Shown: piece by piece, positions 4,262 to 20,854 of the stretch | Position numbering within the stretch: the stretch's first letter is position 1 | Layout of the letters: each line of letters begins with the position of its first letter | Origin: an uncultured Chloroflexia bacterium | GTDB taxonomy: Bacteria > Chloroflexota > Ktedonobacteria > Ktedonobacterales > JADMIN01 | DNA: 32,000 nt | Direction: 5' to 3' | Assembly (NCBI GenBank): GCA_963718915.1 | Contig: CAVRAI010000013.1 | Location: 120,001-152,000 of the forward strand | Position numbers and translations under genes: made by a program | Notes under the pieces: model-generated | Told to the model about the DNA's origin: nothing | The model's input: only the letters and a program-made list of their open reading frames with translations | Database searches by the model: none

Positions 4262-5179
4262 CTATGCCTGTCTAAGGTAAATCATTCCATCGCGAACCTG
4301 TACGTCGTAGCGAGGTTGCGCGAATGTCGCCGGGCCGGTAAGTGCCTTTCCGTCACGCATGCGGAACCGCGAACCATGCCACGGGCACTGCACAACATCT
4401 CCTTGCAATTCGCCTTCGTCGAGCGGACCCCCTGCATGTGAGCATGTCGCGGCGATAGCGGCATATTTCGCGCCCAACTTCACCAATACTACCGGGACGC
4501 CCGCAACCTCCACTCGGCGAAGGGTATTATCCGGCATGTCAGCCACAGGCAGAACAGAAACAAAGTCGTGACTTCCTTCCTGCCATGCGACATGATTCAC
4601 TCCGGTACCCTTGCCAAAGACCATATCACCGCCAAGATACGCTGCCACGAGTACACTGGCTATCCCGATAAAGCCCAAAATCGCTGCCGCCACGCTCTCG
4701 CCAGAGGGATCTGCCAGACGAATTAACAACGAAATAATGTACAGAATGAGCGCGAACGAATTCAGCCCGGCATGATACAGCCCAACGGTGCGCTCGGCTC
4801 CATACGAGTCGCTCCAATCAGCCAGACCGGTGACCGCCGCCGCGATGGCCGCGAGAATGCCGATCAGCACGGCTATTTCGGCGCCACGGGCAGCCCAACT
4901 ATTCGCTGTAGGTGAGGCAATCCAGACAATATCAAAGATGACCGCGATCAGCCACGCGCCTATCGGCACATCGGTTATCGCCGGATGGAGAGGATGGCCA
5001 AGCCAGGTACCATGTAAAAGCGACTTGAAGCGACGTGGCGGCTTGCGGTTTGTTCCAATGACCAACTTGACACCGTTCTGCAATGTATCACTAATCCGGT
5101 CCGTCAATGTCGGAGATTCAGATTGCAACTCGGGTTCAGGATTGTCGTGCGTAGTGGCGCTATCCGAAATTTCGTGCAT
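4262..5179 (-). CDS. DUF2231-type membrane domain fused to a C-terminal Rieske [2Fe-2S] domain
   Basis: 305 aa. The segment LHGTWLGHPLHPAITDVPIG plus about 4 TM helices is DUF2231-like. The Rieske motif is CSHAGGPL...CPWHGSRF (CxH...CxxH). Confidence 0.85.
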   Translation of the reverse strand: MHEISDSATTHDNPEPELQSESPTLTDRISDTLQNGVKLVIGTNRKPPRRFKSLLHGTWLGHPLHPAITDVPIGAWLIAVIFDIVWIASPTANSWAARGAEIAVLIGILAAIAAAVTGLADWSDSYGAERTVGLYHAGLNSFALILYIISLLIRLADPSGESVAAAILGFIGIASVLVAAYLGGDMVFGKGTGVNHVAWQEGSHDFVSVLPVADMPDNTLRRVEVAGVPVVLVKLGAKYAAIAATCSHAGGPLDEGELQGDVVQCPWHGSRFRMRDGKALTGPATFAQPRYDVQVRDGMIYLRQA

Positions 5180-5320: not shown

Positions 5321-5452
5321 AATTCCTGCGGATTATGCTTTCTTCGATGACTCGCGACAGTAATCGCGGCCTCTGCTTCCTCCACGTTCACGAGAGATTC
5401 GGCAGCCGGTTGCGCGGTAGCAGTACTTGACGCCATGCGAAAGGAGCATCCT

Positions 5453-6082
5453 ATGTCGTCCGCCTGGTCTCTCCGATTTCTCACGAGCACACGCGGACGC
5501 CTTATTGCCTTGCTGCGCCGCAACACGCGCACGGTAGACGACCTGGCCTCCGAACTGAACTTGACTGACAATGCAGTGCGCGCCCATCTGGCCGCACTCG
5601 AGCGGGATGGTATCGTGCGCCAGTGTGGTGTGCGACGCGATGGCAGCGTTGGCAAGCCTGCCTATGCGTACGAACTGACCGCTGACGCCGAACAATTCTT
5701 CCCGAAACCCTATGCGACGGTGCTCAATGAAATGCTCGACGCCCTGGAGGGACAGTTGCCTTCAGAAGAACTGGACAGGCTTTTACAACGTATCGGCGCA
5801 CGCCTGGCAACAGGGTATCCGCCGGGGCAAGGAGATACGCGAAAGCGGCTCGAAGCGGCCGTCGATGCGCTCAATCAGATAGGCGGGCTGGCGGATCTCG
5901 ACGTGGATGATGGTACTTTTTCACTTCGTGGCTATAGTTGCCCATTAGCCGCGGTTGTTCCAGGCCACCCAGATGCCTGTCACCTTGCCGAAGCGTTTGT
6001 GAGTGGGGTGGCTGGCGTACCTGTCCGTGAGTGCTGCGATCGTGAAGCCGTCCCACACTGCCGCTTTGAGCTCGCCGAATAA
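5453..6082 (+). CDS. ArsR/SufR-like winged-helix regulator with C-terminal cysteine cluster
   Basis: The HTH segment is RTVDDLASELNLTDNAVRAHLAALERDGIV. The C-terminal motif is C-X12-C-X17-CC-X7-C (CPLAAVVPGHPDAC...RECCDREAVPHC). I prefer the start at ATG 5453 because AAGGAG lies 6 nt upstream. The ORF track starts at 5435. Confidence 0.8.
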   Translation: MSSAWSLRFLTSTRGRLIALLRRNTRTVDDLASELNLTDNAVRAHLAALERDGIVRQCGVRRDGSVGKPAYAYELTADAEQFFPKPYATVLNEMLDALEGQLPSEELDRLLQRIGARLATGYPPGQGDTRKRLEAAVDALNQIGGLADLDVDDGTFSLRGYSCPLAAVVPGHPDACHLAEAFVSGVAGVPVRECCDREAVPHCRFELAE

Positions 6083-6231: not shown

Positions 6232-7599
6232 ATGAGCGATATGCGCAATGGAACAGGCGAGAAACCGAATGACGTTGGCTCTGACACGTTCACCAGCGCA
6301 TCGGCGCCTCCGCTTCCAGTCATCTATACCGCCCGCGCATCCGACGCCAATGCTATGAATCTGGCCATCGCCGCATGGCTCCATGCTAAGTTCCAGCGGA
6401 GTCGTAGCACCAAAACACAGACAACCTACTCGGCTATCCTTCAAGCATTCCGGTCTCAGTTGCTCTCCCATGGTCTCGATCTCGACGCGGCAGACCCACG
6501 CCGCGTAGCCACCGACCTTGGCGCGGATTCCTCAATGGATGAGAGTGGCTCCGGGTTGGGAGACGCTGTCGCCGAGCGCACCCGCGCGCTTGCACTTGCC
6601 GCTCAGGCGTTCGCAGCTCAACCAGCCACCACGCGCTACGGAGCGCGCCCCATTGCTCCGACGACGGCGAATCTGCGGTTAGCCGCCATCAGCAGCTTCT
6701 ATCGCTATGCACTGCGCCACGATTTCTTACGTGGCGGGAATCCCGTCGAGCGCGTGGAACGACAAGTGGTGCAGTCTTATGCGGCGGCGCGGCCACTGGC
6801 CTACGATGATCTGCGCGTGCGTCTTGCGGAAATTGACCTGTCCACACCAGCGGGGCTCCGCGATTATGCCTTGCTGTTGCTGGGTTTGCATACCGGTCGG
6901 CGAGTCTCTGAATTGGCCGGACTTCGCCGCGAGCATCTCATCATTCGCGCCAGTCGCGTCGAGATCACTTGGGTGCGTTGCAAAGGTGGCAAGATCATGC
7001 GTGATGAGCTTCCACGGCAGGGCATTCAGGGGCTGGCCGCCGAGGCGTTGGTTGCGTGGGTGATGCGCCTGTATGGTGAAGATGGCGAGGCAGAACCGCT
7101 CATGACGCCTGATATACTCAAGACGATCCATCAGCATGGCGGCCAGACGAGTAACTCATACACCCACACATCATCGTCTGGTAGTCGTAGTGGGCAGACG
7201 CTTGTCGCGACATCACCCGCTAGTGCGCTCGGCCCAACGGTAGCAGGACAGATACGGCAGGAACGACCGGTCTGGATCAGCCTTGCTATGCGCAATGGCA
7301 CGTACGGACATCCCCTCTCAATTCGCGCGATTGCTTTCATCAATGAGCAACGGTTAGGTACCAGTAAAGTTCATACACTGAGGCATACTTTCGCGCGTGG
7401 CTTGGAAGACGCAGGGGCAAAGGTCAGTGAGATTCAGGCGCGGCTGGGACACGCCGATCTTGGCACGACAGGGCGCTATCTTGCCCAACTGCACGCGGGC
7501 GAAAACCCCCATCTGGCGCGGCTGAGCCACCTCTATGGCCTGGAAGACCGCCTCAAACGCAAGCCGGGGCAGCCGGAACCACTTGCAGACGATGAGTGA
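6232..7599 (+). CDS. tyrosine-type site-specific recombinase / phage-family integrase
   Basis: 455 aa. It has an SAM-like core-binding N-domain. Catalytic signatures: TGRRVSEL (Arg I), KGGK hairpin, HTLRHTFA (HxxR), and LGHADLGTTGRYL (His and the Tyr nucleophile). A Ser/Thr/Gly-rich insertion is encoded at about 7130-7270. Confidence 0.9.
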   Translation: MSDMRNGTGEKPNDVGSDTFTSASAPPLPVIYTARASDANAMNLAIAAWLHAKFQRSRSTKTQTTYSAILQAFRSQLLSHGLDLDAADPRRVATDLGADSSMDESGSGLGDAVAERTRALALAAQAFAAQPATTRYGARPIAPTTANLRLAAISSFYRYALRHDFLRGGNPVERVERQVVQSYAAARPLAYDDLRVRLAEIDLSTPAGLRDYALLLLGLHTGRRVSELAGLRREHLIIRASRVEITWVRCKGGKIMRDELPRQGIQGLAAEALVAWVMRLYGEDGEAEPLMTPDILKTIHQHGGQTSNSYTHTSSSGSRSGQTLVATSPASALGPTVAGQIRQERPVWISLAMRNGTYGHPLSIRAIAFINEQRLGTSKVHTLRHTFARGLEDAGAKVSEIQARLGHADLGTTGRYLAQLHAGENPHLARLSHLYGLEDRLKRKPGQPEPLADDE

Positions 7600-7630
7600 G
7601 CGCGGCTACTTAAGAAACACGGAGCCGCTT

Positions 7631-7756
7631 TCAACTTGACTTCGATTCGATATCGTATGAACGAGCCCAGGCGGTATATCCACCTTCGAGGGCGCTGGCG
7701 TTGAACCCCAGCAGCTGGAGCGTACGCGCCACACGGGCGCTTGTAGCCTCGTCGGG
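7631..7756 (-). CDS. in-frame continuation of the rhodanese domain after the TGA (Sec recoding or readthrough candidate, otherwise a pseudogene tail)
   Basis: The same frame as 7757-9232 reads PDEATSARVARTLQLLGFNASALEGGYTAWARSYDIESKSS, then TGA at 7631-7633. This supplies the missing rhodanese C-terminal helix and the GG..W motif. Confidence 0.6.
   Translation of the reverse strand, partial: PDEATSARVARTLQLLGFNASALEGGYTAWARSYDIESKSS
7719..7748 (-). promoter_or_regulatory. SECIS-like hairpin candidate downstream of the in-frame UGA
   Basis: The mRNA is GGCUACAAGCGCCCGUGUGGCGCGUACGCU. The upper stem is GCGCC/GGCGC (5 bp) with loop CGUGU. The lower part can pair (CUA/UAG and GGC/GCU) with bulges. 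It spans nt 9-38 after the UGA. Confidence 0.35.
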
Positions 7757-9232
7757 TCAGGTACAGTATGCGACGACCCTGCGGTGTTTCGCCGCTGGAT
7801 CGATCTGCGCGGCCCACTCGCGGATCTGGTCCGGCAGCACCCGCACGCTCCCCGGAATCTGGCCGTCGCTCTTCGCGTAGTGCGCTCGCGAGCGCACATC
7901 CAGTATGATCGGCGGTGGCGAATCGTCCATCATAGCCTTTAATTCCTGGGGGGTGATACGCTGAACCTCGGTGGCTTCACCTTCAAAGAGTCCATTGGCG
8001 TCGCTTGCACGCTCCTCAGCCATGGTGATGCTGGACTGCGCCACTCGCGCACCATACCAGCGCGCCGCGGGGGTCGCAGTCACACCATGAACCAGAACAG
8101 AGACCATCACTACGACACCGGTAATCGCCAGCAGACTGGTCGCTTGCGGAGCGCCAGCCGCTACTACGAGCAGAGCCAGTAACAACGCAGAGAGGCCGCG
8201 CGGACCAAACCAGGCGATAAATGCGCGGGCGATGGGACTCATTTTGGCGCGCAGCAAGGCTATCCCCATCGCGCCTGGGCGTACCACGAAGATGGCGATA
8301 ATGGCAAATACCAACGCCAGGCCAAAACTTATTGTTCCAAAGAGCGGCCCCAATATCGCGCCGAATAGAATGAACGCCAGGAGCATCGCCATCTCAGCGG
8401 TCACCTCGCCATAATCCATGAAACAGTCGCAGAGCGTGACATCAAAGAGTGCGACGGCCAGCCCGGCAAAGAAGGCGGCAAGGAATCCATCACCGCCGAG
8501 CGCCTGAGCGGCAGAATAGGAAGCCAGCACCAGCCCAATGCCATACAATGCCTGATACTCGCGCCGGATCGAGTAGCGCTCATCAGCCTTACCCATCAGC
8601 CACGCGCCAATACCGCCAACCGCAATCCCGATAATGGGGCTGAGCACAAGCAGCCGTGCGAGGAAGCCGAGCCAGTGACCAGCGCCCCCGCCTCCATCCA
8701 GCATGATCTGAATGGCTATCAAAACTATGGGCAGCACAATGATGTCATTGGTGCCAGCCTCTATGGTGAGCGTACGCCGTACCGAGCGGGGAATGCGCTC
8801 ATCGCGCACGACATCGCGCAGCACGATGGGATCAGTCGAGGCCAGCACAGCGCCAAGCAGTAAAGACTGAATTGGCGCTGTGTGTAGCAACAGACCGGCC
8901 GCAACCGAGATGCCAGCGATGGTCAGCAGCGTTCCCGGCCCAAGGTCGAGTAGTGGGATGCGCCACTCACGCCGTAGTTCGTCAACATCGAAGCGTGCGG
9001 CATCCAGAAACAGCACCAGCGCTAAGTTAAGCGCCGCCACTGCCTCCAGAGCTGGATCATTTGGGGTAATCCTGATGAGTCCAATCGCGCCTGGCCCAAG
9101 CACCAGGCCAAGCGCCAGGAAAATGATGGGCAGCGAGAGTGGAGCGCGATCAACGATGCCCGAGGCCAGCGCGGCTACGGTCAATACCACGGCGAGAATT
9201 GCGAACCATAATGCCACTGGCTCCACGGGCAA
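7757..9232 (-). CDS. CPA1-family cation/proton (Na+/H+) antiporter fused to a C-terminal rhodanese domain, as called up to the in-frame TGA
   Basis: 491 aa. There are about 11-12 TM helices with Na_H_exchanger-like sequence (ASTDPIV, GTNDIIVLPIV). A rhodanese N-part follows (ILDVRSRAHY...IPGSVRV...RRVVAYCT). The ORF ends at TGA 7757-7759, in the middle of the domain. The true start may be GTG 9226, which has GGGAG 7 nt upstream. Confidence 0.9.
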   Translation of the reverse strand: MPVEPVALWFAILAVVLTVAALASGIVDRAPLSLPIIFLALGLVLGPGAIGLIRITPNDPALEAVAALNLALVLFLDAARFDVDELRREWRIPLLDLGPGTLLTIAGISVAAGLLLHTAPIQSLLLGAVLASTDPIVLRDVVRDERIPRSVRRTLTIEAGTNDIIVLPIVLIAIQIMLDGGGGAGHWLGFLARLLVLSPIIGIAVGGIGAWLMGKADERYSIRREYQALYGIGLVLASYSAAQALGGDGFLAAFFAGLAVALFDVTLCDCFMDYGEVTAEMAMLLAFILFGAILGPLFGTISFGLALVFAIIAIFVVRPGAMGIALLRAKMSPIARAFIAWFGPRGLSALLLALLVVAAGAPQATSLLAITGVVVMVSVLVHGVTATPAARWYGARVAQSSITMAEERASDANGLFEGEATEVQRITPQELKAMMDDSPPPIILDVRSRAHYAKSDGQIPGSVRVLPDQIREWAAQIDPAAKHRRVVAYCT

Positions 9233-18782: not shown

Positions 18783-20234
18783 ATGAGTCGGCAACCAACA
18801 TCGCCTGCAAATCAGGCTATCGCCAGAGCGCTGCGAGCGTTGCCGTCGGTTGACGCTTTGAGCAGCGCGCTGGCGGAGCACTGGGGCTTACGTGAAAAAA
18901 TACGCCCGACACTGGCCCAACTAAACAACGCAGCGCGCGCAACGGTGCAAATCGCGCGTGCTGCTATCATGGCGGAACAGGCAGTGGATATCAGCCTCGA
19001 AGCGCTCATGAGTAAAGCAACTGGCTATCTGATAGGCACCCTGCAGCCAGCCCCTCGCCCAATCATCAATGCTACCGGCGTCATCATCAACACCAACCTG
19101 GGACGCGCTCCCCTGAGTGACGCTGCTCTCTCATCCGTCGCTGGCGTTGCGGCAGGCTACTCCGCGCTCGAATATGATCTTGAACGTGGTGAACGTGGCT
19201 CGCGACTGACGCCGATCCGCGAGCTGCTGCGCGACGTGTTGGGCGCAGAGGACGCGCTGGTCGTGAACAACAATGCAGCGGCAATCCTCGTCACTCTGAG
19301 CGCACTGGCCAGCGGGCGAGACGTCATCATCTCACGCGGCGAACTGGTCGAAATCGGTGGCGGCTTCCGCATTCCTGATGTGCTGCGTCAGAGCGGCGCG
19401 CGACTCGTCGAGGTAGGCACGACCAATCGTACGCGAGTCGACGACTTTGCTGCCGCCATCACCACCGAGACTGCCCTGCTGCTCAGCGTTCATCCCAGTA
19501 ACTATCGCATTCTTGGCTTCACAGCTACACCAGCACTGGATGAACTTTCGCAAACCGCGCACCAGCACCAGATTCCGCTGATTCACGATCTGGGCAGCGG
19601 GGCACTGCTCCGCACCGAGCGGTGGGGGCTGATGCACGAGCCGATGCCCCAGGAAAGTATCGGCGCTGGAGCTGATTTAGTATGCTTCTCTGGCGATAAA
19701 CTGCTCGGAGGTCCACAGGCAGGCATCGTTGCGGGCAAGGCACACTTAATCGCGCAATTGGAACGTCATCCGTTAACGCGGGCCATGCGCATCGACAAGC
19801 TCACACTCGCCGCGCTCCACGCAACGGTACGGGCCTATCACAATGGCACTGCCGAGCGAGAGATCCCTGTGTGGCGGATGATAACCGCGCCGCTTGAACT
19901 GATAGAGGCGCGTGCGGGGCAATGGGCCGAAACACTCCGCTCACAAGGCATCATGGCCAACGTGCGGGAAGGATTCTCCACCATTGGCGGAGGCTCCATG
20001 CCTGGCGAAACCCTACCGACATGGCATTGTGCCATTACCCCCAAACCGACCGGCCCATCGACTCCTGCCACCGTTGGCGACGCTGCATCGGCGCTCAGCG
20101 CGCGTCTTCGGTGCGGCCAAGCGCCAGTCATCGCCCGCGTTCTGCGCGATCAGGTGCTTCTCGACCCGCGAACAGTACTCCCCGAGCAAGACGCCTCACT
20201 CCTTCAGACTGTGCGCGACAGTTTCTCAAACTGA
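18783..20234 (+). CDS. selA: L-seryl-tRNA(Sec) selenium transferase (selenocysteine synthase)
   Basis: 483 aa. SelA similarity runs the full length, including INATGVIINTNLGRAPL and the PLP-lysine motif FSGDKLLGGPQAGIVAG. Confidence 0.95.
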   Translation: MSRQPTSPANQAIARALRALPSVDALSSALAEHWGLREKIRPTLAQLNNAARATVQIARAAIMAEQAVDISLEALMSKATGYLIGTLQPAPRPIINATGVIINTNLGRAPLSDAALSSVAGVAAGYSALEYDLERGERGSRLTPIRELLRDVLGAEDALVVNNNAAAILVTLSALASGRDVIISRGELVEIGGGFRIPDVLRQSGARLVEVGTTNRTRVDDFAAAITTETALLLSVHPSNYRILGFTATPALDELSQTAHQHQIPLIHDLGSGALLRTERWGLMHEPMPQESIGAGADLVCFSGDKLLGGPQAGIVAGKAHLIAQLERHPLTRAMRIDKLTLAALHATVRAYHNGTAEREIPVWRMITAPLELIEARAGQWAETLRSQGIMANVREGFSTIGGGSMPGETLPTWHCAITPKPTGPSTPATVGDAASALSARLRCGQAPVIARVLRDQVLLDPRTVLPEQDASLLQTVRDSFSN

Positions 20235-20317: not shown

Positions 20318-20854
20318 ATGACGCGGCAGATTCCACACAGAAAAAATGGTGCAGCTATGTATCATGGTCCCCATGGTACTCAAGACCTTCCGCCAAGAGT
20401 CCAATCCTCGGCTAACTCATCTCGTTGGCTGGTTGTGGCGGTCGCTTTCTGTGGAGCGCTTGCGGGTGGAAGCATCGTCGAGGCGATAGCGGCGTTTGCT
20501 TCGCGTGCGAGCATGCTTGTCTCACCGGACCATCTCATTGCCGAGCCACTGGTACTAGCGGGAGCGCTCAGCGGTGGCCTGCTGGCAGCCATACTGGCAA
20601 GCAGAGATTATGGCAACGGTCAACGAGCTGATCCGATGATCGCTCAGTCGCTCGCAGCAACTGAGGCCATTCCTTCAGAACCGATGGTATGGCAACCAGC
20701 GCCGCTTCTGTTCCCAATCGCCGAGACTTTGACGTCGAACAGTGTGCCGCCCGCTCGCTCAAAACGCCGCGTACACCGCAATCACCGCAGGGCGCGTCTG
20801 GGCATTTATCGATACCATCCTGGGCGCATCGCGTCTCGCGGTCGTCGAACATAA
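20318..20854 (+). CDS. hypothetical protein with two predicted TM segments and a very basic C-terminus
   Basis: This is an ORF-only call. The hydrophobic stretches are WLVVAVAFCGALAGGSIVEAIAAF and LVLAGALSGGLLAAILA. There is no convincing SD and I recognise no family. Confidence 0.35.
   Translation: MTRQIPHRKNGAAMYHGPHGTQDLPPRVQSSANSSRWLVVAVAFCGALAGGSIVEAIAAFASRASMLVSPDHLIAEPLVLAGALSGGLLAAILASRDYGNGQRADPMIAQSLAATEAIPSEPMVWQPAPLLFPIAETLTSNSVPPARSKRRVHRNHRRARLGIYRYHPGRIASRGRRT

Follow-up and report, generated by a model that had tools for sequence, protein, structure and literature searches.

A predicted selenocysteine codon within the rhodanese domain of a CPA1 antiporter–rhodanese fusion from Chloroflexota

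Rhodanese selenoproteins are known as predictions in five forms, among them one listed as 'form 3, NF041203, CxU' in a 2026 review (PMC13188914). This Cys-x-selenocysteine (Cys-x-Sec; CxU) form is tabulated in both PMC13188914 and PMC9312934 and was first predicted using bSECISearch (Zhang & Gladyshev, 2005). Selenoproteins have also been predicted among transporters and transporter-related proteins, including a cation-transporting P-type ATPase (UxxC), the SO_0444 Cu/Zn efflux protein (UxC), the YeeE/YedE thiosulfate transporter (GUxSG), a mercuric transport protein and SaoP/SaoB/SaoX, and this list contains no antiporter of the CPA superfamily (PMC13188914). In this study, we analysed a 32,000-nucleotide (nt) stretch of DNA from an uncultured Chloroflexia bacterium of the Ktedonobacterales (assembly GCA_963718915.1, contig CAVRAI010000013.1, positions 120,001–152,000), hereafter the window, in which a gene for a CPA1 (NhaP-type) cation/proton antiporter with a C-terminal rhodanese domain is interrupted by an in-frame TGA codon (7757–7759, minus strand). 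Comparison with orthologous loci indicates that this UGA is very probably a selenocysteine codon. A search of the literature found neither a description of an antiporter–rhodanese selenoprotein nor an experimental or functional study of its Sec or Cys form. What is undescribed appears to be the fusion to an antiporter and not the Cys-x-Sec rhodanese motif.

The closest described relative is the NCBIfam family NF041203, rhodanese_LYCAU, in which the Cys-x-Sec form is catalogued; the statement in an earlier first-pass annotation of this DNA that rhodanese selenoprotein families exist was sound. The window domain has in common with NF041203 the rhodanese fold, a Cys-x-Sec active-site loop (A-Y-C-T-U in the window, L-Y-C-A-U in the family), the existence of Cys homologues and the status of a predicted selenoprotein. 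The Y-C-T-U of the window differs by one residue from the Y-C-A-U of the family name, and one relative (P0031) ends in ...YCA. The NF041203 profile matches residues 419–529 of the window protein (87.1 bits, E 7.4e-25, profile positions 16–124 of 126), and this score lies below the curated cut-off of 115. Whereas NF041203 proteins are free-standing and of approximately 126 residues, the window domain forms the C-terminus of a 13-helix-class CPA1 antiporter, being fused to a 390-residue Na_H_Exchanger region. The window protein thus shares the motif of NF041203 and would be expected to work as that family does, but differs from it in architecture and fails its membership score. The listed transporter selenoproteins are likewise membrane transport proteins predicted to contain Sec, but they belong to other superfamilies and carry Sec in the transporter's own metal-binding or substrate-binding motif, whereas in the window it would reside in an appended rhodanese domain. 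The nearest proteins in architecture are Cys orthologues of 530–555 residues (e.g. P0062–P0110; 52–76% identity), named 'NhaP-type Na+/H+ or K+/H+ antiporter/rhodanese-related sulfurtransferase' in JGI records, which share the loop and the tail (YCTCPDEASSGRV...GGYxAW...PVEPK). They differ in having Cys (TGC/TGT) in place of Sec and in that the hairpin described below is not under selection and its synonymous sites vary.

The gene and its reading frame are as the first-pass annotation had described them. An open reading frame (ORF) on the minus strand (7757..9232) encodes a protein with the C-terminus ...KHRRVVAYCT, followed by the TGA at 7757–7759, after which the frame stays open for 41 further codons, PDEATSARVARTLQLLGFNASALEGGYTAWARSYDIESKSS (7634..7756, minus strand), up to a second TGA (7631–7633, minus strand). 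The latter is the true stop of the gene, and no SECIS-like hairpin (SECIS, selenocysteine insertion sequence) follows it. The lengths of 491 and 533 residues given earlier hold if the TTG at 9232 is used as the start, and do not hold for the GTG at 9226–9224, which is probably the true start as judged from an AGGGAG (9239–9234) situated 7 nt upstream of GTG 9226 and from the homologues, whose N-termini read M/V-E-P-V and which have 489 residues before the stop. With the GTG start, the full-length gene spans 7631..9226 (minus strand) and Sec would be residue 490 of a 531-residue protein. Despite this preference, TTG-based numbering (Sec 492 of 533) is used throughout.

When the conceptual 533-residue protein, with Cys put in at the stop, was compared with Pfam, two domains were recognized. 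The Na+/H+ exchanger transmembrane domain (PF00999; residues 19–392; 8057..9178, minus strand) is matched over its full length (E 7.4e-42, profile positions 3–375 of 375), which identifies a CPA1 (NhaP-type) antiporter domain. The antiporter core scores under the cut-offs of all characterized K+/H+ and Na+/H+ equivalogs in NCBIfam, including the potassium/proton antiporter models (NF003716, 147 bits against a cut-off of 355; TIGR00831, 41 against 280). The core is joined through a linker of about 30 residues to the rhodanese domain (PF00581; residues 427–524; 7661..7954, minus strand), which carries the C-x-U motif and an acidic loop (D/N/H-E). The rhodanese match (E 4e-16) covers profile positions 1–101 of 102 and is complete only when the tail after the UGA is included. 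The match spans residues 427–524 and so encloses the TGA at residue 492, in agreement with the earlier proposal that the stop interrupts a rhodanese fold. The 41 codons after it supply the last helices and strand of this fold, including the GGYxAW motif.

The codon at this position was compared across relatives. A protein search gave 2125 hits, of which the best 120 clusters provide the cluster figures below, and DNA was collected for 80 orthologous loci on contigs representing one genome per species; one locus is incomplete and 79 are informative. The aligned codon is TGA in 56 of these loci and TGC or TGT in the other 23, which is the outcome of the homologue alignment at residue 492 that the first-pass annotation had proposed. 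Protein clusters divide in the same way. Sixty-six of the best 120, at 95% down to 64% identity to the window protein, end exactly at ...YC[TA] with lengths of 486–533 residues (nearly all 486–510), and the 54 full-length clusters (529–567 residues) all carry [YF]CxC, 50 of them CxCP, mostly as YCTCPDEASSGRV..., so that the C-x-C-P loop given earlier for related rhodaneses is correct. The in-frame UGA thus aligns with Cys in its homologues, as expected of a selenoprotein gene. The TGA form is found in Ktedonobacterales, Herpetosiphonaceae, Roseiflexaceae, Caldilineaceae, Ardenticatenales, Dehalococcoidia and Thermomicrobiales, and in bins assigned to Rubrobacter(aceae), Actinomycetota and Luteitalea; among cultured organisms it is carried by Nitrolancea hollandica Lb and Thermalbibacter longus CFH 74404.

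These data bear directly on an alternative according to which this strain has recently acquired the TGA by nonsense mutation (TGY to TGA) or its sequence contains an error, as was considered at first pass, or the gene is a pseudogene. Nothing speaks for it except that a domain contains a stop codon. Genomes of 56 other species carry the same TGA, with proteins ranging from 94% down to about 53% identity, and the frame downstream of it is intact. In a detailed set of 53 TGA sequences (the window and 52 loci; the other four TGA loci were covered by tblastn alignments continuing past the stop), the first 36 codons after the TGA are free of stops in every sequence, and in the 52 loci the frame remains open for 40–63 more codons with the consensus P-x-E-A-T-S-A-R-[VA]-A-R-x-L...G-F...A-L-x-G-G-[YF]-x-A-W...P-V-E-P. 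Between the window and its closest relative (L001), the tail shows 11 synonymous and three nonsynonymous differences, a ratio of nonsynonymous to synonymous change (pN/pS) of ~0.1, and the 16 codons upstream of the TGA give a similar value; pN/pS is likewise low across the set of 53. Leu +13 and Leu +23 are invariant in the 53 sequences although each is written with six different codons, and Gly +17 and Ala +20, each written with four, are 96–98% conserved. Judged from these substitutions, the conservation of the tail is that of purifying selection on protein, and the coding-type conservation downstream of the UGA is a second feature expected of a selenoprotein gene. A mutation or error confined to this strain is refuted by the conserved TGA and by the intact, selected tail, and its likelihood is negligible, the lowest of the explanations considered here.

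A second possibility is that the truncated antiporter of 489 or 491 residues is the sole functional product, with the downstream conservation due to something else, such as a small independent peptide or an element of the RNA. A product of 486–500 residues is indeed what gene callers and GenBank annotate, and the public records of TGA-type orthologues ('cation:proton antiporter' in GenBank, 'NhaP-type antiporter' in JGI; 486–510 residues) all end in ...YC[TA]. The tail is, moreover, held as a separate small ORF in a few databases (P0129, P0135). These small-ORF records are, however, fragments of fused genes, as are most of the 15 hits, all weak, that the 41-residue tail retrieved from 1.84 billion representatives. 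At its conserved beginning, the tail lacks a start codon. Conservation sets in immediately after the TGA, from the first codon on, and is of the protein type, third positions being variable outside the hairpin; a truncated product would break off midway through the rhodanese fold. We regard a truncated-only product as very improbable.

In addition to the tail, the nucleotide sequence shortly after the UGA is conserved in a manner that its peptide does not account for. A GCGCC-CGKGY-GGCGC hairpin begins 16 nt after the UGA; in the window (7726..7740, minus strand) it consists of the 5' arm GCGCC (7740–7736), the loop CGUGU (7735–7731) and the 3' arm GGCGC (7730–7726). The A just before the stem (7741) is invariant, as are loop positions C31, G32 and G34, and a mostly conserved C-G pair (7743/7725) closes the hairpin across a 2-nt bulge. 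Computed on the alignment of the 53 TGA sequences (A2), standard pairs occupy 265 of 265 pair cells and none is broken. Four compensatory double changes, three from CG to UA and one from GC to AU, fall in two of the five pairs, and eight cells have changed to G-U wobble. None of 500 shuffles reached the observed pairing or covariation score, and shifting the 3' partner by one to three columns lowers the pairing to 20–68%. RNAalifold predicted the same helix independently, and the hairpin pattern occurs only once in the window. In bacteria, the SECIS consensus is a stem-loop that closely follows the UGA and has a small, G-containing apical loop (PMC1088965), and the hairpin found here has a 5-bp stem and a 5-nt loop, C-G-K-G-Y, at 16 nt past the UGA. 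It is an unusually small SECIS-like element, conserved in sequence across several phyla.

Synonymous sites in the hairpin are frozen in the Sec forms only. Third-position entropies for codons +6 to +10 are 0.45, 0, 0.61, 0 and 0.31 bits in the Sec forms, compared with 1.37, 1.90, 1.82, 1.89 and 1.31 bits in 19 Cys forms. At Ala +7, every one of 52 Sec sequences has GCC, while Ala +4 uses all four codons in the same group (GCT 6, GCC 16, GCA 7, GCG 16); Arg +8, within the loop, is CGT or CGG only, and Arg +11 takes all four CGN codons. The Cys-type genes L081, L036, L050 and L078 have lost the hairpin and retained essentially the same peptide (SAR[V/A]A[R/Q]). L081 (P0018), a gene nested within the Sec forms of Ktedonobacterales, has AGCGCCCGCGTTGCCCGG, L036 has ...CGTGTCGCACGC and L050 has ...CGCGTTGCGCGC; these three encode SARVAR exactly, so the breaks in their hairpins are purely synonymous, and L078 encodes SARAAQ with quite different codons. 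The nucleotide conservation therefore follows the TGA and not the peptide or codon bias. Such natural controls with the same peptide offer a clean system for studying SelB recognition in Chloroflexota.

Several observations weigh against reading the UGA as selenocysteine. The hairpin is short, and comparable folding energies are reached by shuffled sequence (z = +0.42 for 86 nt and -0.10 for 44 nt); as the energy is unremarkable in this G+C-rich sequence, the case for the hairpin rests on comparative data and not on thermodynamics. No Rfam match was obtained for the whole window at gathering thresholds or for 7600–7800 at E <= 10. The window's lower stem is not conserved: an extension of the helix by the GAG/CUC and UAC/GUA pairings of the window's minimum-energy fold was rejected because four of its six pairs are broken in about half or more of the 53 sequences. 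Four Cys-type sequences (L014, L015, L021 and L027) still form five pairs at the same columns, and pairing alone is therefore not diagnostic. In these four, of which GCGGU-CGUGU-AUCGC (columns 26–40) is an example, the synonymous sites vary, and their 5-bp hairpins could be a SECIS relic or chance in G+C-rich coding sequence. As for the decoding machinery, selB, selC and selD were not found in the 32-kb window or in the locus flanks, and ARAGORN found no tRNA, including tRNA-Sec, in the window or in the flanks of 52 Sec-type loci. No neighbouring gene is conserved across the 80 loci by ORF clustering, which leaves the neighbourhood without a functional clue. Finally, SelB binding and selenium incorporation are what we infer from comparative data.

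The window does contain selA, encoding L-seryl-tRNA(Sec) selenium transferase (18783..20234, plus strand; PF03841, E 7.6e-133), as was recognized at first pass. It has no adjacent selB, and the next ORF (20318–20854, 178 residues) matches nothing in Pfam or NCBIfam. Elsewhere in the window TGA serves as an ordinary stop, again as recognized earlier, terminating six of the 17 other Pfam-supported genes, including selA and an integrase-like gene (stop at 7597–7599). A scan of the window for other in-frame TGA extensions gave chance frames only.

The presence of selA is relevant to a third alternative, programmed UGA read-through without Sec, through either hairpin-stimulated near-cognate decoding (e.g. 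as Trp or Cys) or a set ratio of truncated and full-length isoforms. A conserved structure after the stop and a conserved tail would be expected equally under such a mechanism, and the incorporation of selenium is something that we infer. The codon, however, alternates only with TGC/TGT at a catalytic position, which is the signature of Sec/Cys exchange; the small, G-containing apical loop of the hairpin is a known trait of bacterial SECIS elements (PMC1088965); selA lies in the same window; and a related C-x-U rhodanese family is already annotated as a selenoprotein. Read-through without Sec is consequently very improbable as well, although the least so of the three alternatives. The proposal of the first-pass annotation that the TGA encodes Sec in a C-T-U-P loop is borne out by the TGA/Cys pairing, the hairpin, the synonymous constraint, the selection on the tail and selA.

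With the UGA taken as a Sec codon, the hairpin would act as a minimal bacterial SECIS, with a 5-bp G+C stem (GCGCC/GGCGC) and a C-G-U/G-G-U/C loop 16 nt past the UGA, and would be expected to bind SelB–GTP–Sec-tRNA(Sec) and so to deliver Sec to the ribosome. Translation would then proceed for 41 more codons and complete the rhodanese fold. The predicted product is a 531- or 533-residue NhaP-type (CPA1) cation/proton antiporter with a C-terminal, presumably cytoplasmic, rhodanese domain, in the loop of which (C-T-U-P-D-E-A-T-S) Sec would occupy the canonical catalytic position with a Cys two residues before it.

This placement of Sec comes from aligning the domain, pairwise and by profile, with rhodaneses of solved structure whose loops are of the canonical C-x4-R-S type. 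The U-P-D-E-A-T-S segment beginning at the predicted Sec codon (7757..7759, minus strand) aligns without gaps with C-A-G-G-V-R-S of 3iwh, residue 492 falling on the catalytic Cys, and with C-G-G-G-F-R-S and C-G-S-G-F-R-S of the two 6mxv domains. The pairwise alignment with 2hhg differs, placing Cys490 on the catalytic Cys at the expense of a two-residue gap. The fold is common to the window domain and the solved rhodaneses (3iwh, 6mxv, GlpE 1gmx and BH2092 3o3w/3nhv; profile E 1e-15 to 8e-07), and so is the six-residue loop from the catalytic residue to a helix-capping Ser/Thr (C-A-G-G-V-R-S and U-P-D-E-A-T-S). Canonical rhodaneses have a catalytic Cys where the window domain is predicted to have Sec, and their loop is basic, whereas that of the window is acidic (D/N/H-E), which would argue against thiosulfate as a substrate. 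In selenoenzymes, Sec usually stands in place of the catalytic cysteine. On these alignments, Sec most probably replaces the catalytic cysteine, and Cys490, at the strand end two residues upstream, is a potential resolving partner. The first-pass annotation had taken the Cys of VVAYC (Cys490) as the canonical catalytic residue; this is probably wrong, as the ungapped 3iwh and 6mxv alignments favour Sec492. BH2092 (3o3w/3nhv), the best-scoring single domain, shares with the window domain the 'YC' at -2 and the Pro at +1 and has Gly at the canonical position. It has a second Cys at +3 (YCWGPACNG) and could belong to a related, atypical subgroup of rhodaneses in which the active-site cysteine is displaced.

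Pairs of Cys and Sec spaced i/i+2 are typical of redox centres. Most Sec motifs of the Cys-Sec pair kind are found in thiol-oxidoreductase-like proteins (PMC9312934). The Cys-x-Sec pair of the window protein would most plausibly cycle between selenol/thiol and selenenylsulfide states or carry a persulfide-type adduct. One tentative proposal is that ion exchange is regulated by the domain, which would sense redox state or sulfane sulfur; an alternative is a catalytic role of the Sec domain, for example in handling metalloid or chalcogen species. A selenium-based active site on an antiporter would suggest control of pH and cation homeostasis by redox or sulfur status. Still wider, and in our view doubtful as a whole, is the composite reading that the gene represents an undescribed selenoprotein family and the first Sec-containing cation/proton antiporter, that it works as a redox/sulfane-sulfur switch, that its ancestral Sec has repeatedly been lost and that annotation has systematically missed it.

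The distribution of the two forms was placed on a neighbour-joining tree of the antiporter part (L001–L081), which is a rough one. Sec forms occur throughout the tree, and Cys forms cluster in a clade of Anaerolineae/Caldilineae. Single Cys forms (L081, L078 and L044) are found inside Sec clades, and single Sec forms (L032 and L039) inside the Cys-rich one. All Sec forms have one hairpin sequence in common, so the simplest account is that the SECIS arose once and that Sec was then repeatedly lost to Cys, and from this tree the Sec form looks ancestral in the orthologue group, with several replacements by Cys. Sec forms dominate in mostly aerobic lineages (Ktedonobacteria, Thermomicrobia, Nitrolancea and Rubrobacter), and Cys forms in Anaerolineae/Caldilineae. 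Sec use has been reported as generally favoured in anaerobes, a tendency to which this distribution would run counter. Close orthologues, mostly of the TGA type, are present in bins assigned to Rubrobacter(aceae), Actinomycetota and Luteitalea (Acidobacteriota) (L027, L054, L057, L063, L075 and L079), L027 being a Cys-type locus in a bin labelled 'Bacteroidetes'; their occurrence across phyla points to horizontal transfer or binning errors.

If the UGA is decoded as Sec, a secondary-active ion transporter is added to the bacterial selenoproteins, and a Sec antiporter form would be widespread in mostly aerobic Chloroflexota (Ktedonobacteria, Thermomicrobia and Nitrolancea) and in Rubrobacter. 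The mis-annotation would then be systematic; no fewer than 56 species, and 66 of the best 120 protein clusters, would be affected, and in these the true protein would be approximately 42 residues longer and contain Sec. Since the cultured aerobes N. hollandica and T. longus carry the TGA form, direct confirmation is feasible.

A few kilobases from the selenoprotein gene, a fusion of a DUF2231 membrane domain with a Rieske [2Fe-2S] domain (4262–5179, minus strand) is divergent from an ArsR-family regulator (5435–6082, plus strand). Besides antisense artefacts, the only genes shared between loci are AMP-binding and integrase-like genes, in close Ktedonobacterales relatives. The integrase-like gene of the window (6232–7599, plus strand; 455 residues) has a weak, split Phage_integrase match. 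It is convergent with the selenoprotein gene, the stop codons of the two being just 31 nt apart. It is syntenic in five relatives (e.g. L004, 4678–6057) and is therefore not a recent mobile-element insertion.

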